Below are positions 9,318 through 58,860 of a stretch of 64,000 nucleotides of DNA, one piece after another; position 1 is the first letter of the stretch; every line of letters starts with the position of its first letter. The notes under the pieces are model-generated. The model saw nothing but the letters and a program-made list of their open reading frames with translations. It was not told where the DNA came from and made no database searches. Made by a program: the position numbers and the translations under genes. Source of the stretch: a bacterium (GTDB lineage Bacteria > Lernaellota > Lernaellaia > JACKCT01); NCBI GenBank assembly GCA_019912885.1, contig JAIOHV010000229.1, positions 3,846 to 67,845 of the forward strand. The letters run 5' to 3'.

Positions 9318-10808
9318 TCATGACGACAGTTGGGGGGGGACACGCATTTCGCGCAACGGGACGCCCGCATCGGTATCGTCTGGGCGAATCGAAGCCGCGG
9401 ACACGGCGTACGAAAGCGCGTGCCCGGCGATCTCAATCGCCCGGGACGGATTGCGCTTCATCCACGCCAACCACTGGCCGCCGTGTGCGCGCAGATATCG
9501 GCTCGACAGGTAGTAGCGCCGATAAAAGCGGCGCCGCAGCCGGGCGATCGTCACGTCGGACATCGCGCTCAGATTGCCGCGCGGCCGATCGACGTGGCGC
9601 ATGTCGGTATCACCGGGGCGGTCGGCCGCGAGCGCGGTGTCCGGATACGGCGTGCAAAACGACATCTGCGCGACCAGGGGATTGAGCGCGCACGCGAGCG
9701 CCTCGGTCTTTTGGAAATCTTCGCGTGTCTCGCCGGGCGCGCCGATCATGAATGTGTAGCGGTTTCGGAAGCCGAACCGGTCGAGCATCGCGGCGCGTTG
9801 CCGGATATCGGCGACCGTCGTCTTTTTATTCAGCCGTTCGAGGATCGCGTCGCTGCCGGACTCGACGCCGCACGTCATCCCCACGCACCCCGCCGCCTTC
9901 ATCGCGGCGGCAAGTTCCTCGTCCAGGTGGTCAAGCCGCGTCTGAACGATCCACGGCACGCCCAGGCGCCTTTTCCCAAGCTGGCGGCACACTTCCAGCG
10001 CCCACCGGCGATGACCGGTGAAGATCTCGTCCTCGATCGAAATCACGTTGCGGCGAGCCTCCCGAACCTGATATTCCATTTCGGCGACGAGGCGCTCGGG
10101 TTCGCACGCGCGGAAAGCCAGGTGAGCACTCTGCCGCGCCATCGACGAGCAGAACGCGCAGTCATAAAAACAGCCGCGCGTCGCGAGGATGAATCCCCAG
10201 CGGGCCCTTTCACCGATCGCAAGCGGAAACGAATATTTGTGGAAGCGGTCCGTCGCCAGAAGACGCGCGGGGACAAACGGCAGATCGTCCGTGCGGGCTA
10301 GCGGCGCCGCCCCGGTCGACCGCATTCGATGGCCGTCGCGAAGGATCAACCCTACCGGCGGCGCGCCGGCGCGGCGGGCGCTCCACCACGAAACAAGCGA
10401 TCCTGCCGTCGGCTCCGGATCGCCGCCGATGACGGCATCGGCGCCCGCATCGAGCACGTCGCCCGGATGCGCCTCGGCATACGAGCCGAACGCGGCAACC
10501 ATCGACCCCACATCGCGCGCGGCGTCGATGACGCGGCGCATCGCCGGCATGCGGCCAAACGGGATCTCCACGAACACGGCGTCCGGCCGATCCGCGAGGT
10601 CCGGAGTCGCGCCGGGCGCGATCACGGCAAGCTGGGCGCCAAACCCGAGCCGCCCGAGCATGGCGCCCGAGAGCGCGGCGGAAAACGGCAGCACACGATC
10701 GCGCGGATGCGGCCCGTTTTCCTCCGCGGTGCGGATGAACAGCGCACGAGGCGCGCCGGGCCGACCGTCGGAGATGGGGAGACGATTTGTGTTATCCGCG
10801 CGCGCCAA
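9318..10808 (-). CDS. B12-binding (class B) radical SAM enzyme (second copy)
   Basis: The N-terminal B12-binding-like region (...LAVIAPGATPD...VIGGDPEPT...) is followed by ATRGCFYDCAFCS (CxxxCxxC) and a rSAM core (GVESGSDAILERLNKK). The true start may be internal to the listed ORF. Confidence 0.75.
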   Translation of the reverse strand: MARADNTNRLPISDGRPGAPRALFIRTAEENGPHPRDRVLPFSAALSGAMLGRLGFGAQLAVIAPGATPDLADRPDAVFVEIPFGRMPAMRRVIDAARDVGSMVAAFGSYAEAHPGDVLDAGADAVIGGDPEPTAGSLVSWWSARRAGAPPVGLILRDGHRMRSTGAAPLARTDDLPFVPARLLATDRFHKYSFPLAIGERARWGFILATRGCFYDCAFCSSMARQSAHLAFRACEPERLVAEMEYQVREARRNVISIEDEIFTGHRRWALEVCRQLGKRRLGVPWIVQTRLDHLDEELAAAMKAAGCVGMTCGVESGSDAILERLNKKTTVADIRQRAAMLDRFGFRNRYTFMIGAPGETREDFQKTEALACALNPLVAQMSFCTPYPDTALAADRPGDTDMRHVDRPRGNLSAMSDVTIARLRRRFYRRYYLSSRYLRAHGGQWLAWMKRNPSRAIEIAGHALSYAVSAASIRPDDTDAGVPLREMRVPPQLSS

Positions 10809-10879
10809 CCGTTCCCATCTCCTGTGATGATGTACCGCTCATGATACGCGACCCGCGCCGCGCGGCAAAGGGCCGCAAT

Positions 10880-12001
10880 TTACGCCCCGCGCAGCAGATG
10901 CGCCCTCGCCTGACGGTACGTTTCGATCGGATGCGCGGCGAGATACGGCAGATGAAAACGGATCGCCGGTTCGGTGATACCGATATCCCAGCACGGCTGC
11001 GTGCAGCCGCGCACGATCTCGCATTGCGCGCGATAGTCCGCGCCGGCCACAATCTCCTCGAGCGGCGCCTGTCGAATATTGCCGGCGGGCCGTTCGTTGT
11101 AACAAGCCTTCACATCACCGTTCGGTTCGACGATGACAAACAGAAAGCCCGCCACGCACGGCACGGCGCGTCCGGGCCTGTACGCGTCGTCGATGCGGCG
11201 CACGAAAAGCGGCGAGTTCGCGTGTATGCCCCGCGCGTTCAGATCGTCGACGATCCGCGCCAGCGTCGCCTTGGCTGTCTCCCATTCGTCGTCGGTGGGC
11301 AACAGATTGTCGAACGCCGCGCGGTCCATGTGCCGTTGCTGCAACGCGGTGTGTACGGGCGTGAACTGGATTTTCTGCACCCCGAGCCCGACGAGAAACG
11401 CGGCGAGCTCGTCGAGCACCGCGATGTTGTCGCGCATCACGGTCACGTTGACGCCGACCGGCACCGGCGCGGGCCGCGAGCGAAACGCGCGGATCGCGCG
11501 AACGACTTTGGGTAGGCCGTCCACGCCACGAATCGCCTTGTAGCCTTCGGGTTTGTGGTGATCGCACGAGACGTACACCATCGAAAGACCCGCGTCGGCG
11601 AGCGACGCCGCGCGCGCGTCGTCAATGTTCATTCCGTGCGTGTTCAGGTGGATGGAAAGGCCCGCGCCGGAAAAGGCCGCGATGATCGTTTCGAGGTCGT
11701 GCCGAAGCGTCGGCTCGCCGCCGCCGATCGAGACGACGCGCGTCCCGAGCGCGGCAAGCGACGGAATCATCGACAACACCTCGCCTGTCGACAAATCGTC
11801 CGGCCCGCCGTTGGCCAACCGCCAGAATTCGCAGCTTCGGCATGCGGAGTTGCAGCGGTGCGTGATGTCGAAATACACGATCGGAAGGCGCGTCGGCGCG
11901 CCGCGTCCGTATCGCGCGCGAAGCACGCCGGCAAACGGCGCCGCGAGCGACGCCGCGAAACGCAGTTCTTTAATAAAGCGATTCGACGCACGGTTTGTCA
12001 T
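10880..12001 (-). CDS. Radical SAM enzyme with C-terminal SPASM domain
   Basis: The rSAM motif is ITHRCNSACRSCEFW and the SAM motif is IGGGEP. The C-terminal Cys cluster is CVAGF...GDVKAC...CEIVRGCTQPCW (SPASM/twitch pattern). Confidence 0.8.
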   Translation of the reverse strand: MTNRASNRFIKELRFAASLAAPFAGVLRARYGRGAPTRLPIVYFDITHRCNSACRSCEFWRLANGGPDDLSTGEVLSMIPSLAALGTRVVSIGGGEPTLRHDLETIIAAFSGAGLSIHLNTHGMNIDDARAASLADAGLSMVYVSCDHHKPEGYKAIRGVDGLPKVVRAIRAFRSRPAPVPVGVNVTVMRDNIAVLDELAAFLVGLGVQKIQFTPVHTALQQRHMDRAAFDNLLPTDDEWETAKATLARIVDDLNARGIHANSPLFVRRIDDAYRPGRAVPCVAGFLFVIVEPNGDVKACYNERPAGNIRQAPLEEIVAGADYRAQCEIVRGCTQPCWDIGITEPAIRFHLPYLAAHPIETYRQARAHLLRGA

Positions 12002-12239
12002 CCGGTGAATTGTCGCATACGGGGCGCCCGCGCGCGACCGACGCCATGCGCCGCGGAATTTTTCCGCGCGGACCCGCCGGCGCGATGGGAGTCTCGCGAA
12101 TACCGGCGTTCCCTCGACCCCAACCCCGGCATCGGGTAAAGTCGAGCGTCAGGTCCGATGGGATATGGCGCGCCGGGCAAAGGTTCGAAGAACGCATGAA
12201 TGACGAGCGGAAATTTCGCGCGCGAGGGGAGATCGCTTC

Positions 12240-13280
12240 ATGAGGGCGATTCATTTCGTGCGTGCGTTTCGGGCGGCTCTCCGATTGCGTATTCGGGGAG
12301 AAAAGACGCCTCTCGCGGCGAGTTGGCCGCTGTCGCATCGGTGCAACCTTCGATGCTCGTACTGCCAGATTTGGGACAAACTCGGTTACGAACTCGATCT
12401 GGAACAAGGCAAGAAACTCATCGACGACCTGGCCGCGGCCGGAACCATCTGGCTCTCATTTTCCGGCGGCGAACCCATGTTGCGCAAGGAGGTGGGCGCC
12501 TTCATCGACTACGCCACCGAGCGCGGCATGGAGACGAGTATCAGCACCAACGGCCGCCAGATCGATTCGCGCTGGCACGAGATCCGCCGCGTCGGCCGTG
12601 TCAAGATCAGCCTCGACGGACCCGAAGACGTCCACGACGGCGTTCGCGGCGCGGGCTCCCACGCGGTGGCGATGCGCGCGGCCGAAACCTGTCTCGAGCA
12701 CGGCATCCCGATCAAGTTTTCCGCGGTGCTCGGCAATCACAATCTCGAGGCGATCGACTACCTGATTGACGTGTCGCGCCAATTCCAAACGCAGGTGATG
12801 TTTCAGCCGACGACGCTCGCCAAGCTGCGCGACTTCGAGCCCAATCCCGTCTGCCCCGATATCGAGGGATACCGGCGAGTTGTCGACGATCTGATCGCGC
12901 GAAAGAAGAAGGGCTGCCGTCAGATCGCGAACACGCTCGATGGGCTGCGTCACATCCGCAAGTGGCCGGAATCGACCGCCGTGGAATGCTGGGCCGGCCT
13001 TTTGTCGCTGGCCCTGGAGCCTGACGGCACGATCACCTCCTGCACGCGCGGCCCGCTTGAGAAAAGGCAGCGCATCGCGCGGGACGGATCGTTTCCGAAG
13101 GCGTTCGCGCAGCTACACGTTCCGGACTGCCAGCAATGCTGGGACAGCGGCATGCTGGACCTGAACCACGCGTTGTCGTTTAGGGCGCGCACCGCCTTGG
13201 CGCTGGTGGCGAGATTCTATCGGCGGCCGCGCCGGCAAATCGAACGCGTGCATCTGGTAAAATCGACCGCCCCCCGCTGA
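12240..13280 (+). CDS. Radical SAM enzyme with C-terminal SPASM domain
   Basis: Motifs SHRCNLRCSYCQIW, FSGGEP and the C-terminal VECW...SCTRG...CQQCWDSG are present. It is divergent from the minus-strand operon and adjacent to UPF0104 copy B. Confidence 0.8.
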   Translation: MRAIHFVRAFRAALRLRIRGEKTPLAASWPLSHRCNLRCSYCQIWDKLGYELDLEQGKKLIDDLAAAGTIWLSFSGGEPMLRKEVGAFIDYATERGMETSISTNGRQIDSRWHEIRRVGRVKISLDGPEDVHDGVRGAGSHAVAMRAAETCLEHGIPIKFSAVLGNHNLEAIDYLIDVSRQFQTQVMFQPTTLAKLRDFEPNPVCPDIEGYRRVVDDLIARKKKGCRQIANTLDGLRHIRKWPESTAVECWAGLLSLALEPDGTITSCTRGPLEKRQRIARDGSFPKAFAQLHVPDCQQCWDSGMLDLNHALSFRARTALALVARFYRRPRRQIERVHLVKSTAPR

Positions 13281-13335
13281 CGTCGCGGATCGGCACGCAC
13301 GGCGCGAACCGCGACCCCGTTTTCGCGCAGGATCC

Positions 13336-14361
13336 TCACGAACCCTTCGCGCGGGTTCGATCCATTCCGGATGCGTCGTCCGCCGTCGTGAACAGCCCCA
13401 TGCGAAGGGCGGACGGCAGAAAAAACAACGATACGAATACGGGAAGCAGGCTCATCGAAAATGACATGATGAGCCCGCCCGCGAGGGCCGTGACCTCGCT
13501 GCCGAACGGCGCGAAAAAAGCCACCATCGCCGCCTCGCGCGTCCCCAGCCCCATGAAAGTGATCGGCAGATTCGCCACCAGGAACACGAGCGGCGCACGC
13601 CAGAGCAACTCGGCGATCGGTACACCCACGCCCGCGGCGTCAAGGCACATGCCGATCGCAAACAGATCGACCAACTGAAGCGCACAGCCGGCCAAGACCA
13701 ACCAAAGGCGATTCGAAAGGCCGAGGTCGGTGAACCCGCCGACGAGATTGGCGAACAGGTCGCCGGCGCGCCCGTTTTTCGCGCGCACCCACGCCACCGG
13801 GTGGCGCATCCACGGCAGCGCGAACGGCACGGCGAGAACAACCGCGAGGCCGGCCGCCGGCAGCACCCGGCCCGCCGTGCCGGTAAGGAGAAGCCCAAGC
13901 GCGAGATACACCCAGATCGTGTAGAAGTTGATGAAGTGGTACAGCGCCATCGAACCCGCGCCGCGCGCGAAAGGCAGGCCGTAGTGCACGCGAAGATAAT
14001 TCGGCCCGATGACAAACGACCCCGCCTTCATGGGCAGGATCGCGCGCAGGCATAGCACGCCAAGCCACAGGCGGTAGATCTCGACGAGCGGCGGGCGCGC
14101 GCCAAGCCACACGACGATTCGATGCCAGAAAAGCGGAGCCCCAACGAAGATGACCACGAAGTGCAGCGCGATCGCCGCGGCGATGGAGGCGGAATTCGCC
14201 TCGGAAAGTGTCCGGCGCAGGTCGTCCCAGCCGCCAACGCGAACGAGCGCCGCGAAGATGAGCGCCATGAGCACGATCGCCGCCGCCGCGCGCCAGAGCC
14301 GTCGCCGGCGAAAGCCGTGTCCGATCGCGGACAAGACGGTCTTTCGTTCGACAGGCTTCAT
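13336..14361 (-). CDS. UPF0104 / LPG-synthase-TM-like flippase-like membrane protein (copy B)
   Basis: It is about 75-80% identical at protein and nucleotide level to 2381..3406, with the same GLGTREAA motif. ATG is at 14359-14361. Confidence 0.75.
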   Translation of the reverse strand: MKPVERKTVLSAIGHGFRRRRLWRAAAAIVLMALIFAALVRVGGWDDLRRTLSEANSASIAAAIALHFVVIFVGAPLFWHRIVVWLGARPPLVEIYRLWLGVLCLRAILPMKAGSFVIGPNYLRVHYGLPFARGAGSMALYHFINFYTIWVYLALGLLLTGTAGRVLPAAGLAVVLAVPFALPWMRHPVAWVRAKNGRAGDLFANLVGGFTDLGLSNRLWLVLAGCALQLVDLFAIGMCLDAAGVGVPIAELLWRAPLVFLVANLPITFMGLGTREAAMVAFFAPFGSEVTALAGGLIMSFSMSLLPVFVSLFFLPSALRMGLFTTADDASGMDRTRAKGS

Positions 14362-14447
14362 GCGTCTTCATCCATGGGGATTATTCCGCCGCCATTACGA
14401 CCTGTGCGGCTTGTGTAGGCAAGAGCCGCCAAGTTACCTTGCGCGCC

Positions 14448-15683
14448 ATGATCCCCCGCCGCCGCACCACCACCTACCCGGGCATGACGCGACGGATCAT
14501 CTCCGCATATCTCAATGGCGAGGCCGTCGCCGGCGCGGCATCGGCCGAGTTCGAACGGCGCCTGGCCGCGATCGCGGGCACGCGCCACGGTATCGTCGTG
14601 TCGTCCGGCCGCTTCGGGCTGCAACTGATTCTGCGAAACATCGGCCTTGCGCCCGGCGCGGAGGTGATCGTGCCGGCGTACACGCTCACCGAGTTGCCGC
14701 ACGTCGTGCGGGATGCGGGATATACGCCGGTGCTGGCCGACATCGAAGCGCACAGCCTTAACGTCGGCCCGGAGCAGATCGCGAAAAAGATCACCGAACG
14801 CACGAGCGTGATCCTCCTGACGCACATGACCGGCGAGCCGGGCGACGTGGACGGCATTTTGCGCCTCGCGGCCGAGCGCGGACTCCTTGTGATCGAGGAC
14901 AACGCGCACGGCATCGGGGTGACGTTGCCCGACGGGCGACCGCTCGGCTCGCTCGGACGCGCGTCGTTTGTCTCGCTAGCCACGCGCAAGGTGGTCAACA
15001 CCTTCGCGGGCGGCGCCATTCTTACCAACGACGATGCCCTTGCCGCCAAAATTCGCGAGGCCGTCGCGTCCCTGCCGGTCACGCACAAAAAGCTTCTGAT
15101 CCGCGTCGTCACCTGTTCACTTGAAATATCGAGCCTCGGCCGTATTTTCGCGCCGATGACCGTCCGTCTTTTGCATTCTCCCCGGTTCAACAAGATGATG
15201 GTCGGGCTCTACCGTGCGATGCACCGCCGCGGGCGGGAGACGGAGTTCGGATACGCCAACCTGCAGGCGCTTCTCGGGCTGGACCAGTTCGATGTCCTTT
15301 CCGCGACCATTGCGCGGCGGCGAGCCGTCGCGAAGACCATCATTGACGGTCTAATGGAATCGCCGGACTTCGACCGCGAATACCTCGCCGCGCTGCGCGT
15401 ACGCGCGTTCGGATCCGGCGCGATCACGCACAACTTTTTTGAGCTGATCGTCATGGCGCACAATCCGTCCGCGCTGGCCGGGAAGTTGCTCAGGCACGGC
15501 GTGGATGTCGGTACGGGCGACGATGTTTGCGAGGATCTACCGCGCTTGTACGGCGCCGGCGGCGACTTCCCCAATCTGCGCCACGCCCTTGCCCACGCCG
15601 TGCAGCTACCGATCTGGTCGACGATGACCGAGCGCGAGGCGCGCGTCGTGGTGGCGCGGATTCTCGCGGCGGCGCACGACTGA
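14448..15683 (+). CDS. DegT/DnrJ/EryC1/StrS-family PLP-dependent aminotransferase (copy B)
   Basis: Translation MIPRRRTTTYPG...GAEVIVPAYTLTELPHV...LLTHMTGEPGDVDGILRLAAERGLLVIEDNAHGIG is a clear family match. An alternative start lies at 14439. Confidence 0.8.
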   Translation: MIPRRRTTTYPGMTRRIISAYLNGEAVAGAASAEFERRLAAIAGTRHGIVVSSGRFGLQLILRNIGLAPGAEVIVPAYTLTELPHVVRDAGYTPVLADIEAHSLNVGPEQIAKKITERTSVILLTHMTGEPGDVDGILRLAAERGLLVIEDNAHGIGVTLPDGRPLGSLGRASFVSLATRKVVNTFAGGAILTNDDALAAKIREAVASLPVTHKKLLIRVVTCSLEISSLGRIFAPMTVRLLHSPRFNKMMVGLYRAMHRRGRETEFGYANLQALLGLDQFDVLSATIARRRAVAKTIIDGLMESPDFDREYLAALRVRAFGSGAITHNFFELIVMAHNPSALAGKLLRHGVDVGTGDDVCEDLPRLYGAGGDFPNLRHALAHAVQLPIWSTMTEREARVVVARILAAAHD

Positions 15684-15849: not shown

Positions 15850-16692
15850 ATGCAGGCGTTTCGATTTTACGAAGTCTCGGTGACGGGGATCGCGGGGGAT
15901 ATCCGGGGGCAATTCGCCGAGGCCAGCGGCTCGCTGCAACCTGTCGCGCACGCCGGCGACGCGCCGCTTATCGACGAATGGATCGTCAACGACGACGTCA
16001 GCGGCGCGGCGATTCGCCTGGCGATTCGCGGCGAGGCCGGCGCGCGCCGCCTCGCGCCGATCGGTATCGATCCCGCGCATCGGCTGACGCGGCTCTATGG
16101 TGCGCTCGCGTATTTTCGCGCGGGGATGATCGCGCGCGGCCTGGAGAAGGTGCACTCGTTTCGCTACGCCGACAATCTCGACATGGAGATCGCGGCCGGT
16201 GTCCTGTCCGCGGATGAGCGCATGAACGCCTTCGCCGAGGCGTTTCTCGGGCCGTGGTCGCCGATCGACGTCGCCTTTCTTTCGCCGCTGCGCGCGATCG
16301 CGGGCATCGACGCGCACGCCGACCCGGACGACATCCGCCGCGTGCTTCGCGACTGGTACGCGCGCGCCGAGGCGTGGTCCACGCGCGTCGCGGGTTTTTC
16401 GTATCACGGCGGCGCGTTCATCCGCGAGGAGTGCGGCGTGGAGAAAACCATCCTCGCCAAAGGCGACGAATGCCGCCTGTTCCGCGAGCCGTACAACCCC
16501 GTCGACCCGAACGCGATCGGCATCATGCACGTGTCCGGCCGCAAACTCGGCTACGTGCGCAAGACCATCGCCGCGCTCGTCGCGCCGCTCATGGATCTCG
16601 GCGTGGTGTATCGCGCGAAAGTGGGCGCGTTCCTGTCGAACGAGTTCGATCCGCCGGAGCGCGTTTACGTGTCGGTGGAGCGCGTGGGGTGA
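15850..16692 (+). CDS. Hypothetical protein with C-terminal HIRAN domain
   Basis: The AAGGAG RBS sits 6 nt before ATG 15850. The C-terminal ...VAGFSYHGG...GDECRLFREPYNPVDPNAIGIMHVSGRKLGYVRKTIAALVAPLMDLG matches the HIRAN consensus (NPxDxNAI ... GyV). The N-terminal about 190 aa is unassigned. Confidence 0.65.
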   Translation: MQAFRFYEVSVTGIAGDIRGQFAEASGSLQPVAHAGDAPLIDEWIVNDDVSGAAIRLAIRGEAGARRLAPIGIDPAHRLTRLYGALAYFRAGMIARGLEKVHSFRYADNLDMEIAAGVLSADERMNAFAEAFLGPWSPIDVAFLSPLRAIAGIDAHADPDDIRRVLRDWYARAEAWSTRVAGFSYHGGAFIREECGVEKTILAKGDECRLFREPYNPVDPNAIGIMHVSGRKLGYVRKTIAALVAPLMDLGVVYRAKVGAFLSNEFDPPERVYVSVERVG

Positions 16693-17693
16693 AGCGCACC
16701 GCCGTATTTCGCGGCGATCGCCGCGGCGGTACGCCGCACGTCGTCCGCCAGTTCCGGCGGTGCAAGAACGCGCACGCGGTCCGTGTAGGAGAGCACCCAC
16801 CACACGACCTCGCGCAGGCCGCCGACGGTCATCGCGACATCCACGGTGCCGTCCACGTTTCTCGTGTTCGACTGCGTGGGGTGGAAAAGGATTTCCTCGG
16901 CGTAGTGCGCGACATCGGCGTCGAAACGCACGCGCACCTCGACCGGCTTGCCGTGATAGATGCCGAAATTGCGATCGACCTTCGCCGCGAGCGAAAACCC
17001 GTCCGGCAGATCGAAGCGGTCGTCCGTGATCGCGGCCGATTGAACGCGGCGCACGGAGAAGATCGTCAGATCGTCGTGCTGGGCGGAGTACGCGGCAAGA
17101 TACAGAATCTGCCGGTGCACCACGATGCCGCACGGCCGGATGGAATATTCGCGCGGCGCTTCCCACGCGGGATTGAAATACGTCATGCGGCAGACGCGGT
17201 GCGCGAGGATCGCACGGTTCAGCGTGGAGATGATCTCTTTTTTCTCGCGGTAGAGGGCGCGCTGGTGATGGATCGGCGCGAAGTGATCCTCGATGTCCAC
17301 GAGACGCGCGACGACGTGCGGCGGGAGCGTCGAGGAGATTTTCTGGCGCAGGCGATCCATGCCGTCCTTGTACGGCGTACCCTCGAAGAAATCGAAAAGG
17401 CCCGACGCGAGCCACGCGGCGATAAGCTCGTCGTGATCGAGCGGAAACGGCGGCATGTCCGGCGCGGGCCCGATCACGCTCCAATACTTGACCGCGCCCT
17501 CCTGATGAATGACGCCGAGCGGAAATCCCGCCGCGCCAAGCGCCTCCAGATCGCGCTCGATCGTCCGCCGCGCGACGCCGTGCTCCTCGACAAGCTCCGC
17601 GACGGTCACGCCGACCTTCCGGTGCGCGGCGAGCTTCATAAGGATATTCCACTGGCGCACAAGCTGTTCGTTTCGGCCGATGTGGTCGGGCAT
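16665..17693 (-). CDS. WYL-domain transcriptional regulator (wHTH-WYL-WCX architecture)
   Basis: The N-terminal HTH is ...LVRQWNILMKLAAHRKVGVTVAELVEEHGVARRTIERDLEAL (DeoR/HTH_11-like). The central WYL-like region is ...ILAHRVCRMTYFNPAWEAPREYSIRPCGIVVHRQILYLAAYS... It is convergent with the HIRAN gene (28 bp 3' overlap) and divergent from 17822 gene. Confidence 0.75.
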   Translation of the reverse strand: MPDHIGRNEQLVRQWNILMKLAAHRKVGVTVAELVEEHGVARRTIERDLEALGAAGFPLGVIHQEGAVKYWSVIGPAPDMPPFPLDHDELIAAWLASGLFDFFEGTPYKDGMDRLRQKISSTLPPHVVARLVDIEDHFAPIHHQRALYREKKEIISTLNRAILAHRVCRMTYFNPAWEAPREYSIRPCGIVVHRQILYLAAYSAQHDDLTIFSVRRVQSAAITDDRFDLPDGFSLAAKVDRNFGIYHGKPVEVRVRFDADVAHYAEEILFHPTQSNTRNVDGTVDVAMTVGGLREVVWWVLSYTDRVRVLAPPELADDVRRTAAAIAAKYGGALHPTRSTDT

Positions 17694-17821
17694 GGGGACG
17701 CTCTCTTTCGAATCGCGAAATCATGCGAAAATGCTGTTTATGGTTGACGCCGAATTGAGCCTACGTTTTTATAGCGGATCGTGTCGTACATTAAAAGTCC
17801 TTAGAAACAACGGAGAACGAA

Positions 17822-18826
17822 GTGCCTTTATACAACAGACATTTGTCGAACCCGGCTTTTGAATACCTCTTAAGCAGCGATGGCGCGGACCTTCTGAAAC
17901 TTTTGCTGTCACCCGGCGTCAAAACGACAAATGCCGGGATACGCGTCCCTATCGACGTCCAGTTCCGACGGGGCGATTTTATCCAACTGTACGCCGGAAC
18001 CGCGTGCGTTCTGCGGTTGCAGTGGAACGGGACGACGTTTCAGTCAATACCGAAAAGTGTCCACAACTTCATCCGTTTGCGCGAAAACACAGTCACTGCG
18101 ATTGTGGAAAATTGGGAGCACCATCGAGACTCGGTTGAAATTAATGAACCGAGGTTCTTATTAAATGAATCGACGTGGCAAGCTGCCCTCGCTTTTCGCT
18201 TCGGACGGAATTTCAAAAAAGGCGATCCATTTTGTGTCATTGACGCCCAAATGAGGATGGAAACGCTTGCAGACAGCCGTGAACTAGAAATTGTCCAAGA
18301 AAGTTATAGGCCGATTCGCCAATCACTATGCGAATTGCCGGTAATTCGTTTGCCAAAGGAGTTTGCGTCCGGCAGTTTCTGGGATCAAATCGACATTCTC
18401 GGAATAAACGGTGATGGCAAGATCATCGTTGTCGAAATTAAGGTCGGGACCAGCGCGCGTGGCGTCTATTCGGGGCCGATTCAAGCGGGAGGCTATACCG
18501 AGCTCTTGACGGAATTTAAAGGCGACCTAGTTGCCGGCGTCCGTCCCCTGATCGAACAAAAAAAGCAACTTGGCCTACTACCCGCAAGTGCTCCGGATTT
18601 TAACCCGTCTGGCGACTTCGAAATTGCACCGATTCTGGCTGTCGGTGAACCGAATTGGCGCTCGTCGATGTGGAAAACGCTTGGAATCGTTCTGTCTGAA
18701 TGCCTCGAAAAAAAGTCGGAGACTTTTAAGGATTTTCGAATTTGTACATTCGACGATGTCGATTTCGACAAACAGTCAATGCGACCGGAACAAATCGCAC
18801 GGCTAAATCTGCCTTGGTATTTCTAA
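17822..18826 (+). CDS. PD-(D/E)xK-like (restriction-endonuclease-fold) protein, horizontally acquired
   Basis: It has a GTG start with GGAGA upstream. GC is markedly lower than its surroundings. The C-terminal half contains ...FWDQIDILGINGDGKIIVVEIKVG..., i.e. a D-(x13)-ExK catalytic triad pattern of PD-(D/E)xK nucleases. The remaining domains are unassigned. Confidence 0.55.
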   Translation: MPLYNRHLSNPAFEYLLSSDGADLLKLLLSPGVKTTNAGIRVPIDVQFRRGDFIQLYAGTACVLRLQWNGTTFQSIPKSVHNFIRLRENTVTAIVENWEHHRDSVEINEPRFLLNESTWQAALAFRFGRNFKKGDPFCVIDAQMRMETLADSRELEIVQESYRPIRQSLCELPVIRLPKEFASGSFWDQIDILGINGDGKIIVVEIKVGTSARGVYSGPIQAGGYTELLTEFKGDLVAGVRPLIEQKKQLGLLPASAPDFNPSGDFEIAPILAVGEPNWRSSMWKTLGIVLSECLEKKSETFKDFRICTFDDVDFDKQSMRPEQIARLNLPWYF

Positions 18827-20064
18827 CCATCCACCGCGCCGCCCATCAGGTCGGCGGCAACTGCGTCGAGATCGAATACGACGGGCACCGTTTGTTGCTC
18901 GACGCGGGGAGTTCACTGGACGCGGACGAACATGCGGACGACATCCCGCCGACGCTCGACCGGAAGCGCCCGATCGACGGGCTCGTCATTTCGCATCCGC
19001 ATCTCGATCACTACGGCCTGCTCGATCGCCTTCCCGCCGATTGGCCGGTGTGGTCCGGCGCGCCGACCGAAATTCTCATGCGCCTCACGGCTTCCATCGG
19101 CCGCAAACGATATCGGCAGTCGTTTCGCCACTACCGAAGCGGCAAGGCGTTTCGCGTTGGGCCGTTCAAGGTCACGCCCTTTCTCGTCGACCATTCCGCC
19201 TTCGACGCGCACATGCTCCTCGTCGAGGCCGGCGGCCGGCGCATCTTTTACTCCGGCGATTTCCGGCGCACCGGACGCAAAAGCCTGTTGACGGAACGCC
19301 TCATGCGAAAGCCGCCGCGCGACGTGGACGTGTTGTTGCTCGAAGGAACGACGCTCGGCCGCACCGGCGATTTTCCGACGGAGACGGACATCGAGCAGCG
19401 TCTCGTCGATCTGCTGAAAGACACGAAGGGGCGGATTTTCGTGACGTGGTCGGCGCAGAACATCGACCGCACCGTGACGCTCTACCGTGCCTGCAAGAGG
19501 GCTCGCCGAACGCTTGTTCTCGACGTCTATGCCGCCGGCGTTCTCGATCGCCTGGCGACCGATTCTAGCAAGATTCCGAGGCTCGGCTGGCCCTGTTTGC
19601 AGGTCGTCGTCACGAAATCCATTGCGCGCATGTACAAGGATCGGGCGCGCGTGAACGACGCGGCATTCGTGGATCGCTGCGCGACATCCGGCTTTGCGTT
19701 TGGCGCCGACAAACTCGAATCCCGCGCGCGAAACGTCATCATGCTCCGCCCGTCGCTTTGGAAGGACTACGCGCGCAAAGGCGTCACGCTGACACCGCAT
19801 GACGGCTGGGTATTTTCGATGTGGTCCGGCTACGAAAAGAAAACCGATTACGCGGAATTGCGGACCGCTTTCGAGTCCGCCGGTGCGCGCCTTGAACGCA
19901 TCCACACAAGCGGCCATGCCGCGCCGGACGACCTCGTCGCGTTTGCCGACGCTGTCGCCCCGCGACATCTCGTGCCGATCCACGGCTTTGACTGGGATCA
20001 ACACCTGCACCGCTTCAAAAACGTGAAGCGCTTGCGCGACGGCGAGCGATTCGCGATCGTTTAG
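18814..20064 (+). CDS. Metallo-beta-lactamase fold nuclease of the beta-CASP type (RNase J/Artemis-like)
   Basis: The MBL motif ISHPHLDHYG (HxHxDH) and the beta-CASP C-terminal signature RIHTSGHAAPDDL...PRHLVPIHG are both present. The start is uncertain (TTG 18814 or nearby). It overlaps the stop of the upstream gene. Confidence 0.75.
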   Translation: MVFLTIHRAAHQVGGNCVEIEYDGHRLLLDAGSSLDADEHADDIPPTLDRKRPIDGLVISHPHLDHYGLLDRLPADWPVWSGAPTEILMRLTASIGRKRYRQSFRHYRSGKAFRVGPFKVTPFLVDHSAFDAHMLLVEAGGRRIFYSGDFRRTGRKSLLTERLMRKPPRDVDVLLLEGTTLGRTGDFPTETDIEQRLVDLLKDTKGRIFVTWSAQNIDRTVTLYRACKRARRTLVLDVYAAGVLDRLATDSSKIPRLGWPCLQVVVTKSIARMYKDRARVNDAAFVDRCATSGFAFGADKLESRARNVIMLRPSLWKDYARKGVTLTPHDGWVFSMWSGYEKKTDYAELRTAFESAGARLERIHTSGHAAPDDLVAFADAVAPRHLVPIHGFDWDQHLHRFKNVKRLRDGERFAIV

Positions 20065-20320: not shown

Positions 20321-21160
20321 ATGAGCCATCCGTTTTCTCTACGTCGAACACGGCTTTCGATCGCCGCCGCACTCGCGGTTTTTGCCGTCGCGATCCCGGA
20401 CGCCGGCGCCGCGACCGGCGAGCAGAATTTCACCAATTACTGCTTCGCGTGCCACACGATCGGCGGCGGCAAGCGCGTCGGCCCGGATTTGAAGGGCGTC
20501 ACCGAGCGCCGCTCCCACGAGTGGCTCGTCAAGTTCGTCGCGTCGTCGCAGTCGGTCGTCAAGAGTGGCGACCCGGACGCCGTCGCGCTGTTCGAGGAAT
20601 ACAAGATCGAAATGCCGGACGCGCCATACACCGCGGACGAGATCAAGGAGATCCTCGCCTACATCGCCACCGGCCCGACGACGCAGGCCTTCGTGCCGCT
20701 GCGGGCCACGACGCCCCAAGACATCGAGCGGGGCCGGGCGCTGTTTCAGGGCCACACGCGCCTTGCCCAAGGCGGTCCCGCGTGCAACTCGTGCCATCAC
20801 GTGAAAAACGACGCGGTGATCGGCGGCGGCATCCTGGCCAAGGATCTCACGGAGGTGTTCGCGCGCATGGGCGCGCCGGGCATCAACGCGATTTTGGGCA
20901 AGCCGCCGTTTCCGGTCATGGAGGAAGCGTACCGGAACAGGCCGCTTTCCGAAGACGAGGTATTCGCCCTGGTCGCCTTTCTGGAAGACGCCAACCGGCA
21001 GCAGGCGTTTCAGCAGCCCAACGACTACGGATTCAAGCTGTTCTACAGCGGCTCGGCCGGGTTCGTGCTGCTCCTCGGGATCTACGGGATCATCGGGCGC
21101 AAGCGGAAAAAGCTCTCGGTGAACCACAAGATCTTTGACCGCCAGACCAAAAGCCAATGA
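20321..21160 (+). CDS. narC: Diheme c-type cytochrome, NarC-like, with signal peptide and C-terminal TM anchor
   Basis: There are two CxxCH motifs (CFACH, CNSCH), an N-terminal signal peptide and a C-terminal hydrophobic helix. It lies directly upstream of narG, as in the Thermus thermophilus narCGHJIK1K2 operon. The GGGAGGG SD sits before the ATG. Confidence 0.75.
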
Positions 21161-21224
21161 CCGGGAACCGCGCGAACGAAGCGATGACGCCGCCGCCACG
21201 GACAAGAACGAGGAAGGGAAAACC

Positions 21225-24842
<3,618 letters not shown>

Positions 24843-24856
24843 ACAGGGGCACAAAA

Positions 24857-26407
<1,551 letters not shown>

Positions 26408-26409
26408 AT

Positions 26410-27102
26410 ATGTCCCTGGCGCATTACGACTCTCTTGCGGGCCTGGTTGCCTATCCCGGTCCCGGATTCGAGGCCGAACTTTCACGGGCGATCGCGCTTC
26501 ATTCCGAGCTTCACCCGGGCACGGCGCGGGAAATCGAGGCGTTTCGCGAGCAACTGCCTCTCGACGACCTTGTCGCGTTGCGGGAACTGCACACGCGGAC
26601 CTTCGACGTTCAGCCCATCACCACGCTCGACATCGGTTACACGCTCTTTGGCGAGGATTACAAGCGGGGAGCGCTCCTTGCGAATCTGAGCGCGGAACAC
26701 ACGCGCGCGGGCAACGACTGCGGCGCGGAGCTCGCCGACCATCTGCCGAACGTGCTGCGCCTGCTGCCGAAAATGGCGGACGCCGCGCTGCGCGAGGAGT
26801 TTGTCCGCCTTTTGCTCGCGCCCGCGTTGCGGGAAATGATTCGCGACTTCGAGCCGTCGCGTCTCGCCAAAAAAGAGGATCTGTATCGAAAGCACCACAA
26901 GACCATCATCGCCGTCGCGACGGGGCCGGCCCGCACCGCGTGGCGCCACGCGCTCGAGGCGATATTCGAGCGGCTGCGCGCGGATTTCGCGTTGGACGAC
27001 GGCTTTTCGGACGACATGGCTTCCCGGTTTGCCGGCGCGCTTGGCACCGAACTGGCCATCGAGGACGGCGGAACCTGCGTCAACAACGGGAGAGGTGCGT
27101 GA
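26410..27102 (+). CDS. narJ: Nitrate reductase molybdenum-cofactor assembly chaperone
   Basis: The protein is 230 aa (MSLAHYDSLAGLVAYPGPGFEAELSRAIALHSE...) and lies in the canonical position between narH and narI. Confidence 0.8.
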   Translation: MSLAHYDSLAGLVAYPGPGFEAELSRAIALHSELHPGTAREIEAFREQLPLDDLVALRELHTRTFDVQPITTLDIGYTLFGEDYKRGALLANLSAEHTRAGNDCGAELADHLPNVLRLLPKMADAALREEFVRLLLAPALREMIRDFEPSRLAKKEDLYRKHHKTIIAVATGPARTAWRHALEAIFERLRADFALDDGFSDDMASRFAGALGTELAIEDGGTCVNNGRGA

Positions 27103-27830
27103 TGAATTTGCCGAACGCGTTTCTGTTCGCGGGGCTGCCCTACGCGGCGGCGCTGATCTTTCTCTACGGAACGATTCAGCGGTACCGCTCGAAGGGTTTC
27201 AAGGTCACCTCGCTTTCGTCGCAGTTCCTGGAGGGGAACGCGCTGTTTTGGGGCACCCTGCCCTTTCACATCGGAATCCTCGTAGTCTTCTGCGGTCACC
27301 TGACGGCCTTTCTCATCCCGCGCGGACTTTTGCTCTGGAACAGCCACCCGGTGCGCCTGATCGTATTGCAGGTCTGCGCGTTCGCGTTCGGCCTGAGCGT
27401 CGCGGTGGGTTTGCTTGGTTTGATTTATCGCCGGCTGACCAACCGGCGGGTGCGGATGGTGACGACGCGAATGGACGTTGCCATCGAGGTTCTTCTGCTG
27501 GCGCAGGTGATCCTCGGCCTGTGGATCGCGCTCGGATATCGCTGGGGTTCGTCCTGGTTCGCCTCGGATCTCACGCCGTATCTCCGATCGCTGTTTGCCC
27601 TCAATCCGAACATCTCGGCCGTGAGCGCGATGCCCGTCGTGGTCAAACTTCACATCACCGGCGCGTGGCTCATCCTGGCGATCTTCCCGTTTACGCGCCT
27701 TGTGCACATCCTGGTGGCCCCCCTGCACTACATCGCCCGGCCGTACCAGCGCGTGATCTGGAACTGGGACCGCAAGGCCGTGCGGGATCCGGCCACGCCC
27801 TGGAGCCGGGTGCGCCCCCGGAACAACTGA
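27102..27830 (+). CDS. narI: Respiratory nitrate reductase gamma subunit (cytochrome b)
   Basis: Translation MNLPNAFLFAGLPYAAALIFLYGTIQRYRSKGFKVTSLSSQFLEGNALFWGTLPFHIGIL... shows the five-TM NarI pattern with heme-ligand histidines. Its ATGA overlaps the narJ stop. Confidence 0.85.
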   Translation: MNLPNAFLFAGLPYAAALIFLYGTIQRYRSKGFKVTSLSSQFLEGNALFWGTLPFHIGILVVFCGHLTAFLIPRGLLLWNSHPVRLIVLQVCAFAFGLSVAVGLLGLIYRRLTNRRVRMVTTRMDVAIEVLLLAQVILGLWIALGYRWGSSWFASDLTPYLRSLFALNPNISAVSAMPVVVKLHITGAWLILAIFPFTRLVHILVAPLHYIARPYQRVIWNWDRKAVRDPATPWSRVRPRNN

Positions 27831-57654: not shown

Positions 57655-57991
57655 GAAAAGCCCCTCGCTCCGCGCCGCCTGCCCCAAGCAACCGAAGGCG
57701 TCCGGCGCGGCGTCCGAATCGGACACGCGGTATGCCTAAAACGAAACGCACGGGGCCGCAAGGGCGCAGCGCGCCGGCCGCGGCGACCCCGCTCGCGGTC
57801 GGCGACTCGCACCGCGGGCGCGGGGGGTTCTCTCCGATCGAGTAAGCGGATAGAATGCGTCAAATTTGCAAGGGGGAATGTGAGCGTGGTACGCGAATTA
57901 ACAGCGGAGCGAGGCCCAGCACCACTAGGCCAAGGTCAGTTTTTTGCGCGGAATGGGGAATCTAGCAGGCACCTGTCACGGTTTTTTTACG

Positions 57992-58666
57992 ATGAATAAA
58001 TTAATTTTGGCAGCAATTTGCCTTGTAGCTGGCGGCTGCGAACTATATCATCCGGCACCGCAGATCAAGCCAGAAGACCGGACCGCGAAAGCTGAGTCGG
58101 CAATAAATTCAATTGATAATAACATTGAACAAATGAAAGCTCAGAACAGAGATAAGCTTGACATCTTGTCCTATAAATGCGAAATGGATTCTTATATATA
58201 CAATAATTACCATCTTCGATATGACTTTACGGCGTGCCACGAATTAAAGCTACAAAAAGAACGCGATCTAAAATCACTACAACGGGAGCAATATCGAAAA
58301 AGAATAGGGACAGACGATAGCGAGGAAAATCCCGAAAAAGCACTAAAATATTTTTGCCACAATTTTGAACAATTGCTGCTTGCAGAAATCAAGCTATATG
58401 GATCCATGGAAGATACCAAAAAAATTATGCCGCTATCAAAGCACCTACAGAATCAGCGCAATATCACTGAATTTCAAGCGCAAAGAAATGTCTACGTCAA
58501 AGCAACACGGGGATCGCTTGCGAAATATTATAAACTTGGCGGAACTATTAATATTAAAAAAGAATTCGAGAAAGGGCAAGATGGCATAACGCTGGCGTGT
58601 CCAACTATTTCTCCGCATATATTCGGATATATTAGCAGATATAACTTAATGCTAAAGTTCAAATAA
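57992..58666 (+). CDS. Foreign low-GC lipoprotein (hypothetical)
   Basis: Translation MNKLILAAICLVAGGC|ELYHPAPQ... has a lipobox. The protein is about 225 aa and K/N/Y/E-rich. Local GC drops sharply (roughly 35-40%) between about 57840 and 58690, unlike the flanks. Confidence 0.65.
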   Translation: MNKLILAAICLVAGGCELYHPAPQIKPEDRTAKAESAINSIDNNIEQMKAQNRDKLDILSYKCEMDSYIYNNYHLRYDFTACHELKLQKERDLKSLQREQYRKRIGTDDSEENPEKALKYFCHNFEQLLLAEIKLYGSMEDTKKIMPLSKHLQNQRNITEFQAQRNVYVKATRGSLAKYYKLGGTINIKKEFEKGQDGITLACPTISPHIFGYISRYNLMLKFK

Positions 58667-58693
58667 TTTAAGGCAAAAAAAACGGAAAAAAAC

Positions 58694-58710
58694 GGGGACA
58701 GTCACCTATT
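58694..58710. repeat. Inverted copy of the 17-bp core (ggggacagtcacctatt) of the 57414/57479 repeats
   Basis: It is an exact reverse-complement of aataggtgactgtcccc and lies at the right edge of the low-GC insert. Confidence 0.7.
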
Positions 58711-58860
58711 TTCCCCCTCTTTAATCGTGCAATTGTTGTCCAAAAAGAATGGCGAGACGTCGTCGTGGCGGGTTGTCTTTGTCTTTCGTTTGCGACTTGC
58801 TTCATAAACGTGTCTCCCGGACCTTAAAAAGGGCGTCTCCGCTTCGGCGTTCCTGGCCGG

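Follow-up and report, generated by a model that had tools for sequence, protein, structure and literature searches.

The window analysed here is a stretch of 64,000 nucleotides from a bacterial contig, in which four ORFs lie close together (Table 1). Their positions and lengths agree with independent gene calls for the same public contig, and Pfam and fold matches support the domain assignments of an earlier note on this DNA (HIRAN, WYL, PD-(D/E)xK-like and beta-CASP metallo-beta-lactamase, hereafter MBL). The geometry is also as described there: the HIRAN and WYL genes are convergent with 3' ends overlapping by 28 nt, the WYL gene and the partner nuclease gene p3 are divergent, and p3 and the MBL gene form a two-gene unit. 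The start codon of p3 is GTG, preceded by GGAG. For the MBL gene the TTG annotated by NCBI is the most likely start, with which the gene overlaps the p3 stop by 13 nt; the two genes are one operon and translationally coupled.

Table 1. Features of the locus (positions in the window).
Feature	Position	Strand	Remarks
HIRAN-domain protein gene	15850..16692	+	280 aa; Pfam HIRAN; adjoins the module, judged a non-member
wHTH-WYL-WCX transcription factor gene	16665..17693	-	342 aa; Pfam domains
Divergent intergenic region	17694..17821	.	128 bp; low GC (~0.51); putative regulatory role
p3, partner nuclease gene	17822..18826	+	334 aa; predicted PD-(D/E)xK fold
beta-CASP metallo-beta-lactamase nuclease gene	18814..20064	+	416 aa; TTG start

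The PD-(D/E)xK fold proposed for p3 is confidently predicted by the AF2 model (pLDDT 90.2), and a fold search with this model matched the nucleases NucS, Can2, FokI, SduA and HamA. In the alignment the core consists of E116 (nt 18167-18169), D191 (18392-18394) and E205-x-K207 (18434-18442), while the beta-rich N-terminal domain carries a conserved D45-x-Q-x-R49 / Y57-x-G59-x-T61 motif. NucS/EndoMS and SduA of Shedu belong to the PD-(D/E)xK nucleases and have an N-terminal sensing domain; however, p3 can be aligned to them over only ~105-130 residues, gave no match to NucS or DUF4263/Shedu in Pfam and PADLOC, and is paired with an MBL, whereas SduA and NucS work without such a partner. An exhaustive HMMER search yielded 175 representative homologues of p3 at E<=1e-3, the best with only 39% identity. 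With a GC3 of 0.53, compared to ~0.8 in the adjoining genes, p3 is of foreign composition.

The MBL protein matches Lactamase_B_2 (64.7 bits) and RMMBL (25.3 bits) in Pfam. As the earlier note had it, the protein is a beta-CASP nuclease; every catalytic motif is intact (D30, H61-x-H63-x-D65-H66 at nt 18994-19011, H127, D149, the beta-CASP E177, H364/H368 and H390), and it is complete and predicted to be active. In structure its beta-CASP domain is nearest to members that act on RNA (RNase J, CPSF73, Cas14) and not to SNM1/Artemis, with TTHA0252 also among the closest structures. We rejected an RNase J orthologue, as the protein scores 78 bits against an NCBIfam cutoff of 400 and lacks the RNase J C-terminal domain; the housekeeping RNase J orthologue that the earlier note had considered as an alternative thus does not hold. 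Among the closest known beta-CASP nucleases is also PDB 2az4 (EF2904, function unknown). Cas14 was likewise rejected (37 against an NCBIfam cutoff of 800), and neither a CRISPR array nor Cas genes, as in type VII CRISPR-Cas, are present at the locus. RNase J-type enzymes and Cas14 have no PD-(D/E)xK partner, whereas the window MBL is encoded with an obligate one.

Two kinds of known modules resemble this arrangement in part. In the ligase-associated DNA damage response exonuclease cluster (Lhr / beta-CASP exonuclease / ligase / metallophosphoesterase) a bacterial beta-CASP nuclease is likewise found inside a small accessory operon, and a metallophosphoesterase adjoins the cassette in two related loci. 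The window MBL, however, reaches only 14.9 bits against TIGR04122, the model of the ligase-associated exonuclease (cutoff 325), and no ligase or Lhr helicase was found in the window or in related loci. In the antiviral systems HamMAB, Avs, Lamassu and DRT a separate MBL-fold nuclease gene adjoins a controlling or complementing partner (PMC12799240, PMC13069673). These modules of MBL nuclease and trypsin protease (accessory pairs in the case of DRT) differ from the window cassette in nuclease type: their MBLs are ComEC-like, have no beta-CASP domain and become active through proteolysis, whereas the cassette combines a beta-CASP MBL with a partner that is itself a nuclease and has no protease.

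When loci were anchored on close relatives of the MBL, we found an adjacent partner of ~300-370 aa in 57 of 61 non-redundant loci with room for one; in 55 of these the partner precedes the MBL gene on the same strand, and a 4-nt overlap of stop and start is seen in 33 of the 57. Anchoring on the p3 family gave an MBL within 4 kb in 14 of 20 loci, with variable gene order, and the pair was also found on the contig of a closer p3 relative. The partners fall into three families with a common nuclease core. Members of family A are remote homologues of p3 along the whole protein (hhalign 97.6%, E 2.8e-12, 233 columns), while family B has only the D..ExK core in common with them. Mean identity is 32% among partners and 59% among MBLs, and the partner value was the lower one in 98.6% of 1,030 pairs. 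The partner thus evolves much faster than the MBL and yet co-varies with it (r = 0.77), the usual pattern for a subunit that confers specificity or acts as a sensor. The conserved unit comprises the last two genes only.

The p3-MBL cassette is unnamed, widespread and mobile. Both proteins stay below the thresholds of all named families in PADLOC v2.0.0 (2023), NCBIfam and Pfam, and full-text searches of the published literature gave no description of the pair; that the locus matches no named defence system can therefore be upheld. Its distribution is sporadic (Planctomycetota, Verrucomicrobiota, Desulfobacterota-type lineages and Alphaproteobacteria), and its surroundings are often those of plasmids, transposons, prophages or restriction genes. 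On Cereibacter pORIO1 a Tn3/Tn7-like element carries the cassette as cargo, on a Rhizobium phaseoli plasmid it adjoins Eco57I-type RM and GIY-YIG genes, on a Sphingomonas plasmid it is IS-flanked, and one copy lies in an ICE next to a ubiquitin-like E1/E2/JAB cluster. Others were found near Mrr, in a prophage-like stretch, and near IS66, patatin and McrBC. Stress-sensing regulators recur beside the cassette: in addition to WYL, a cpYpsA SLOG gene and, in two loci, M78+HTH_31, a hit to the capP model of PADLOC. The genes directly beside the cassette vary greatly, with 94 Pfam families represented in a set of 150 neighbours, and many copies, including that of the window, lie among ordinary metabolic genes. 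About 13 of the 150 neighbours match PADLOC models at 1e-8, a rough count that includes several generic models and is given without a background rate, so that it does not establish any enrichment of the cassette near defence genes. In phage genomes no homologues of the cassette family were found, which is neutral for a role in defence.

The WYL protein matches WCX (66.6 bits, ~16713-16946) and WYL (50.3 bits, ~17031-17237) in Pfam, as well as HTH_11 (~17517-17657) at 24.8 bits, just below the 25-bit cutoff. The nearest solved proteins are DriD (E 6.4e-18, full length) and then PafC (1.4e-6), both activators, whereas BrxR and CapW, the type to which the earlier note pointed for phage defence, were undetected by sequence search even at E<=10. 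Most of the residues by which DriD contacts ssDNA are not kept (2/7 identical, 1 conservative). A wHTH-WYL-WCX factor divergent from its presumed targets is also seen in DriD/PafBC damage regulons and BrxR/CapW defence operons; full-length similarity to DriD is a feature of the window protein, and the presumed regulated pair is undescribed and differs from the genes of those systems. The WYL gene has a native GC3 of 0.83. Its linkage to the nuclease pair does recur, in ~10 of ~100 related loci from unrelated lineages and with all three partner families, but the regulator is facultative, and ~90% of the cassettes have no WYL gene. The WYL gene and the p3-MBL operon are presumed to have their promoters in the intergenic region. 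The hexamer TTGACG, which had been read as a -35 element, is indeed present at 17744-17749, but no sigma-70-like promoter in this region passed the scan; the WYL operator expected here is unproven, as we found no inverted repeat. No Rfam family matched the region.

We consider it about an even chance that the cassette is a mobile, inducible two-nuclease module for defence or conflict. Through the DriD/PafC-like WYL regulator, expression would probably respond to nucleic-acid stress, signalled for instance by ssDNA or a similar ligand. Once induced, p3, as a fast-evolving PD-(D/E)xK endonuclease with an N-terminal domain of recognition type, may recognise and nick or cut a target nucleic acid, most likely DNA. 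The resulting 5'-phosphorylated ends could then be degraded 5'->3' by the MBL, a conserved RNase J/CPSF-like beta-CASP metallo-nuclease without the RNase J C-terminal domain, with which we infer p3 to form a complex, and invading (phage, plasmid) or aberrant DNA would thereby be destroyed. Against a role in defence stand the heterogeneous neighbours, the many copies among metabolic genes, the lack of a detected operator or promoter, the structural nearness of the beta-CASP domain to RNA-acting enzymes, the likeness of the WYL protein to damage-response activators with only 2-3 of 7 DriD contacts kept, and the repair-like accessory genes described below.

The main rival, which we regard as possible though doubtful, is a LexA-independent DNA-damage-response module, in which the WYL activator would sense ssDNA and induce both nucleases, possibly together with HIRAN, and the nucleases would process blocked ends, cross-links or stalled forks in repair and not in immunity. 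The HIRAN domain of HLTF binds 3' DNA ends, which would suit such a role, and repair-type genes recur near the cassettes (DEDDh exonuclease, SRAP, an OGG-like glycosylase three times, a RecD2-like helicase and the metallophosphoesterase). DriD and PafC, the only detectable solved relatives of the WYL protein, are both DNA-damage activators (PMC9186387), but WYL regulators can govern damage response and defence alike (PMC12392091), so the regulator type cannot discriminate between the readings. A sporadic distribution tied to mobile elements does not fit this reading well, and the partner evolves rapidly and is prone to swapping, which is unusual in repair enzymes; moreover, most cassettes lack WYL and the HIRAN gene accompanies no other copy. 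By their scores, adjoining PolIII alpha genes are of the housekeeping DnaE type and not DnaE2, so that this link looks like plain synteny.

An RNA-directed module, in which RNA would be degraded or processed by the RNase J-like beta-CASP enzyme together with its partner, is unlikely in our view; it might cleave RNA in the manner of abortive infection, arrest growth like a toxin or serve as a stress RNase paralogue. The target could be RNA, since the nearest structures are RNA-acting, the RNA-cleaving Cas14 included, and RMMBL is an 'RNA specificity' domain. However, the RNase J score is far under its cutoff, the fold of the obligate partner is of restriction-endonuclease type and nearest to the DNA nucleases NucS, FokI, SduA and Can2, and accessory genes and regulators are DNA-centred. 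RNase J-family enzymes are, furthermore, reported to be active on ssDNA in some organisms.

The earlier note had viewed all four genes as one system, with HIRAN as a 3'-end sensor acting with WYL and both nucleases. The genes are contiguous, and the HIRAN domain (48.7 bits, cutoff 24.7; residues 178-253, ~16381-16608; E 6e-5 to that of HLTF) has weak domain-level matches in PADLOC, to the candidate PDC-M03B only (E 4e-7); no domain was assigned to the N-terminal 175 aa. Yet HIRAN was found in none of ~100 related loci, including the ~10 that also bear WYL, and no homologue was found on plasmids. The gene has a native GC3 of 0.83, follows an aminotransferase gene on the plus strand and is convergent with the WYL gene, which makes a shared promoter impossible. 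It looks like a bystander outside the module, and the four-gene system is very improbable; the proposal of an undescribed defence or damage-response cassette is retained for the unnamed nuclease pair but not for the four-gene composition. A selfish or maintenance function for the carrier elements (exclusion, addiction or DNA processing during transfer) instead of host defence would fit the copies on transposons, plasmids, an ICE and a prophage-like region, but is hardly credible, as many copies, including that of the window, are chromosomal and non-mobile, no conserved antitoxin-like or methyltransferase partner was found among the cassette neighbours, and it overlaps heavily with the defence reading, from which it is hard to separate by sequence.

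Two points were missing from the earlier note, namely that the two-gene core is very widespread and that the window copy is chimeric. The window MBL is 45-66% identical to MBLs from a metagenome scan whose partners belong to family A or B, but only 29-41% identical to those paired with the p3 family. By composition and phylogeny the window copy thus combines an MBL of the clade normally paired with family A with a partner from the p3 family. Partner GC is below MBL GC in 63 of 71 loci, and the difference in the window (0.49 for p3, 0.63 for the MBL gene) is the most extreme among them.

Third-position GC, in a window of ~64% GC, supported best between 15.8 and 20.1 kb the same four ORFs that had been drawn in the earlier note, and independent gene calls on the public contig, whose sequence is identical, gave the same products. 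The start codon of the gene for the beta-CASP metallo-beta-lactamase nuclease (MBL) is most likely a TTG, which gives a 13-nt overlap with the stop codon of the upstream gene, here called the partner gene; the two together are referred to as the cassette. To the left the four genes are flanked by a radical-SAM/aminotransferase cluster and to the right by cytochrome c and Nar-like oxidoreductase genes. These flanks are metabolic and the window locus is no defence island. When the flanks were searched for direct repeats, att sites and tRNA genes, just short imperfect chance repeats and a single tRNA, 20 kb off, were returned.

Features of the window discussed in the text (window coordinates)
Feature	Position	Strand	Content
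Radical-SAM cluster	9318-15683		three radical-SAM genes (one SPASM), LPG_synthase_TM membrane protein, DegT/DnrJ aminotransferase, upstream YfhO-like protein; probably a glycan or peptide modification cluster
HIRAN gene	15850-16692	+	280 aa
WYL regulator gene	16665-17693	-	342 aa
Divergent region	17694-17821		128 bp
TTGACG	17744-17749		inside the divergent region
Partner gene	17822-18826	+	334 aa, PD-(D/E)xK protein
MBL gene	18814-20064	+	416 aa, beta-CASP nuclease
Nar-like respiratory cluster	20321-27830		cytochrome c, then 1,235-aa molybdopterin oxidoreductase, NarI-type gamma subunit; directly downstream of the cassette
ORF	57944-58666	+	240 aa, no Pfam family
Low-GC island	58000-58800		GC 0.37-0.40 against a background of ~0.64

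The product of the partner gene matched no family in Pfam, NCBIfam or PADLOC, and its sole match in a word-indexed search of 5.8 billion clusters was itself. Its family was recovered by exhaustive HMMER, which found 175 relatives at E<=1e-3 among 1.84 billion representatives with a top identity of just 39%; a profile search gave at least 8 matches. The 60-member alignment contains the conserved blocks LDvQlR, YHGTT, EGyWQ, vIDrE, DlLA, vELKhG, GiYwgPLQ and QK..LGLLP, with D141 and D191 invariant and E116, E205, K207, Q221 and Y225 present in at least 90% of the sequences. Because of these residues we regard the protein as a new family in the restriction-endonuclease fold with an intact E...D...ExK site. 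A predicted alpha-beta-beta-beta-alpha-beta core carrying E ... D ... (D/E)xK, the hallmark of the PD-(D/E)xK superfamily, was found, which supports the assignment made in the earlier note. The N-terminus forms a beta-rich domain. Identity with Shedu (SduA, DUF4263) was rejected, as neither Pfam nor PADLOC gives a Shedu match; the sole PADLOC matches are PDC-S11 (E 3e-3) and PDC-S18 (E 2e-2) over ~30 residues, and Foldseek aligned the protein to 8ps4 at E 7e-3 with a TM of 0.22. NucS/EndoMS, judged by sequence membership and the N-terminal half-barrel domain, was rejected as well.

Regarding the MBL protein, the RMMBL/beta-CASP signature was detected by Pfam, and motifs 1-4 (D, HxHxDH, H, D) as well as beta-CASP motifs A (D/E), B (H) and C (H) are all present in a two-domain fold, as the earlier assignment to the beta-CASP MBL superfamily would have it. 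In the clustered database the homologues fall into more than 3,000 clusters (90% identity). Among the matches listed, 120 in number, identity to the window MBL is 51-66% and length 365-447 aa (nearly all ~415-440 aa). None of the catalytic residues of the MBL and beta-CASP domains varies. A housekeeping RNase J orthologue, named beforehand as the identity that would speak against a cassette of this kind, is not what the gene encodes: the protein scores 78.3 bits against a cutoff of 400 (TIGR00649) and 54.3 against 820 (NF047419), the RNase J model matches are confined to the N-terminal residues 35-260, it has 416 aa compared with ~550 for RNase J, and the RNase J C-terminal domain is missing. 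Cas14 of type VII CRISPR-Cas was likewise rejected (NF045584, 37.4 bits, cutoff 800); scanning 15-21 kb turned up no repeat array, and none of the neighbours is a cas gene. The same applies to the ligase-associated damage-response exonuclease (TIGR04122, 14.9 bits, cutoff 325), with no ligase or Lhr gene nearby.

Related loci from other genomes and metagenomes (L-numbers) were collected from both sides of the pair. Relatives close to the MBL in the window (45-65% identity) served as anchors for 80 metagenomic loci; for a further 20 loci, in species-representative genomes, the anchors came from the majority clade within the family of the window protein. The latter scan used a 16-sequence subclade of the 60-sequence alignment, so that the window's own subclade is under-sampled. 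An adjacent partner is present in 57 of the 61 non-redundant MBL-anchored loci having at least 1 kb of upstream sequence. The partner lies upstream on the same strand in 55 MBL-anchored loci, and a 4-nt stop/start overlap is seen in 33 of the 57. The partners belong to family A (53 loci), family B (14) or the window protein's family. Family A and the window protein's family are full-length remote homologues (hhalign probability 97.6%, E 2.8e-12, 233 columns); family B has the D..ExK core alone in common with the latter (probability 90.6%). Conversely, an MBL gene is found at a distance of up to 4 kb in 14 of the 20 partner-anchored loci, ten times directly adjacent and with either gene order, and three of the six loci without it are cut off by contig ends. 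A partner gene whose product is more closely related to the window protein (36% identity) is likewise followed by an MBL gene. As the pair recurs in MBL- and partner-anchored loci alike, the conserved unit is a two-gene cassette.

Single genes and irregular arrangements were noted as well. One MBL subclade, 57-58% identical to the window MBL (L006/L007/L039 and L119/L120), is located without a partner among FGE-sulfatase genes, therefore the MBL is able to persist alone. In L010, L021 and L025 a window-family partner occurs without an MBL within 8 kb; that of L025 has a REase-ARP/PDDEXK_13 nuclease gene in its vicinity and is oriented divergently to a WYL-like fragment. An odd arrangement is seen in L100 (3428-6007), where the end of a truncated PolIII alpha-like ORF (model positions 4-783 of 1146) overlaps the MBL start codon and a family-B partner is located downstream on the opposite strand.

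Of the two genes of the cassette, the partner evolves by far the faster. In family A the mean identity is 32% for partners compared with 59% for MBLs, the partners being the less alike in 98.6% of 1,030 locus pairs, and the divergence of the two co-varies (r = 0.77); the corresponding values for family B are 36% and 57%. In 63 of 71 loci the partner gene has a lower GC than the MBL gene, the mean difference being 4.3 points. The difference is most extreme in the window, where GC is 0.49 in the partner and 0.63 in the MBL gene (GC3 0.52 and 0.78) and the low-GC segment extends between the start codons of the WYL and MBL genes. Members of the window MBL clade are otherwise paired with family A or B, while the MBLs paired with the window protein's family are just 29-41% identical to the window MBL. 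The simplest reading is a recent replacement of the partner gene and the intergenic region with a copy that came from a donor of lower GC. Such a replacement would mean that partners can be exchanged from one branch of the system to another.

The cassette was repeatedly found on mobile elements. On plasmid pORIO1 of Cereibacter azotoformans it is carried as cargo, with Tn3-family and TniB/TniQ genes on either side and a metallophosphoesterase gene next to it downstream, on pRphaN671a of Rhizobium phaseoli it adjoins Eco57I-type RM, GIY-YIG and MobF genes with the partner downstream, and on a Sphingomonas plasmid it is flanked by IS elements. An ICE in L002 (5000-11013; TraG-like gene, HTH_17) carries an MBL homologue with a 112-aa remnant of a family-A partner, next to an M78 peptidase and HTH_31 pair and a Multi_ubiq / Prok-E2_E / JAB-ThiF (Bil-like) cluster. 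Further settings are beside Mrr-type nucleases, in a prophage-like stretch of a 9.4-Mb genome, and near IS66, patatin and McrBC genes, any enrichment near defence genes being a rough estimate. Other copies, including that of the window, are located among housekeeping genes. No members of the MBL family were identified in sequenced phage genomes, and none of the window protein's family in plasmids.

Among 150 immediate neighbours of the cassette 94 Pfam families are represented, none more than three times, an extreme variety as expected of an autonomous cassette. Recurrent neighbours are DEDDh exonucleases, metallophosphoesterases, SRAP proteins and OGG-like proteins; M78 peptidase and HTH_31 pairs near the cassette match the PADLOC capP model, and ADP-ribosylglycohydrolases account for 3 of the 150. 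In L014 (1248-5196) a cpYpsA SLOG protein is located upstream and an ADP-ribosylglycohydrolase downstream of the pair. A double AAA+ ATPase of ~700-760 aa occurs in eight, mostly WYL-bearing, loci (L027, L028, L031, L055, L058, L100, L106/L107); its top NCBIfam model is the anti-phage ATPase IteA, with a score far under the cutoff. In L055 and L106 it stands immediately before the MBL gene, where the partner would otherwise be. This Cdc48-like protein was rejected as a core component, being present in just eight loci and missing from the window. A link to DnaE2 and the mutasome, raised by PolIII alpha genes flanking the cassette in five loci, was rejected as well, since their scores are those of housekeeping DnaE; we regard this proximity as plain synteny.

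A mobile two-nuclease cassette is the best-supported explanation of these data. A role in defence or in conflict between elements appears about as likely as not to us; what favours such a role is the sporadic phyletic pattern, the mobile carriage, the diversification and swapping of the partner and the kinds of regulators attached. The fast-evolving PD-(D/E)xK partner would provide recognition and first cleavage, the conserved beta-CASP enzyme processive 5'->3' degradation, and in some hosts a nucleic-acid-sensing regulator would gate expression. The more specific proposal of the pair as founding member of a widespread, so far unnamed kind of two-nuclease immune module, in which a fast-diversifying, horizontally swappable PD-(D/E)xK recognition/first-cut subunit licenses a conserved RNase J-like beta-CASP exonuclease, with WYL, CapH/CapP-like or SLOG gating in some lineages and the window as a recent swap, is put forward tentatively, as somewhat less probable than its opposite. 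In PADLOC-DB v2.0.0 (2023) no effector model was matched: the MBL has no match at E<=0.1, the partner only weak local ones, the WYL protein matches generic WYL models and the HIRAN protein PDC-M03B at the domain level alone. Full-text literature searches found neither a pair of beta-CASP and PD-(D/E)xK proteins nor its WYL link described, and within this scope the lack of correspondence to a named defence system, claimed from the start, was upheld. The MBL-protease pairs described recently, HamMAB and its relatives, differ from the cassette: their MBLs are of the ComEC type, and activation is by a fused trypsin-like protease (PMC12799240, PMC13069673). We rate the cassette as akin to nuclease-based, regulator-gated accessory modules.

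The main rival is a function in the DNA-damage response, which we hold to be unlikely; it draws on the repair-type accessory genes and on a DriD-like regulator.

WYL genes, a facultative component, were identified in about 10 of ~100 loci (L015, L016, L020, L025 as a fragment, L027, L028, L031, L048, L100, L106/L107), with all three partner families and mostly upstream and co-directional. For a random 12-kb neighbourhood about 1% would be expected, on a rough estimate from typical numbers of WYL genes per genome. The window regulator is a wHTH-WYL-WCX protein (WCX 66.6, WYL 50.3 bits; HTH_11 24.8 bits, just below the 25-bit cutoff), and sequence comparison with solved proteins detects only DriD and PafC/PafB as its relatives, with five DriD entries matching full length at E 6.4e-18 to 3.5e-15. 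BrxR and CapW are absent among its PDB sequence matches even at E<=10, and no inverted repeat was found in 17650-17850; the protein is not assigned to the BrxR/CapW-type defence repressors, of which it may still be a functional analogue. DriD and PafBC both activate damage responses that are independent of LexA, and are themselves activated by ssDNA (PMC9186387, PMC11804915). Of the ssDNA-contact residues of DriD (Y168, S172, R178, Y192, K202, R204, W206; PMC9186387) only Y168 and Y192 are identical in the window protein, W206 being replaced by F, and its ligand is therefore uncertain. As damage and defence regulons alike can be under the control of WYL regulators (PMC12392091), the type of regulator does not tell the two functional readings apart. 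Regarding the promoter and operator proposed for the divergent region, the TTGACG is present at its reported position, but the promoter scan gave no consensus promoter there; nor was an Rfam element found, and a comparison by eye with the published 20-bp DriD site showed nothing significant.

An RNA target, suggested by RNA-acting beta-CASP enzymes being the nearest to the MBL in structure, seems improbable to us. The four-gene system including HIRAN that was proposed in the earlier note we consider very unlikely: the protein does carry a C-terminal HIRAN domain (PF08797, 48.7 bits, cutoff 24.7; HLTF HIRAN structures matched at E 6e-5), but HIRAN is missing from all loci anchored on the MBL or the partner, and no homologues of the protein were found in 72,556 plasmids.

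If the two-nuclease cassette is a defence or conflict module, it would add to the bacterial immune repertoire a common system missed by current catalogues. To our knowledge the beta-CASP fold has so far been seen in immunity only in the rare type VII CRISPR-Cas. The cassette would then also be a natural example of recognition-subunit swapping, with three partner families around one nuclease core, and in the window the presumed recent exchange is still visible as a compositional scar. If it is instead a WYL-controlled damage response, DriD/PafBC-type regulons would extend to new phyla and enzymes. Either way a biochemical hypothesis follows, namely an endonuclease feeding a 5'->3' metallo-exonuclease, and the partners constitute sizeable families that lack a Pfam family (the window type, and family A as judged by precomputed Pfam only).

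Some minor observations are added. In L117 (827-16942) an island of HATPase_c_3, Mrr_cat, HU and Endonuclease_NS genes is followed by the partner, a 159-aa ORF, the MBL, a DEDDh exonuclease, a SRAP protein and a RecD2-like helicase, possibly as an extended version of the system. Two deltaproteobacterial loci, L018 (181-945) and L022 (6924-7685), encode directly upstream of the pair a ~254-aa protein with a C-terminal DeoR/HTH_11-type HTH and 180 N-terminal residues without assignment, which may be an alternative regulator. In the window itself, the low-GC island coincides with the 240-aa ORF and looks like a second foreign insertion, unrelated to the cassette.
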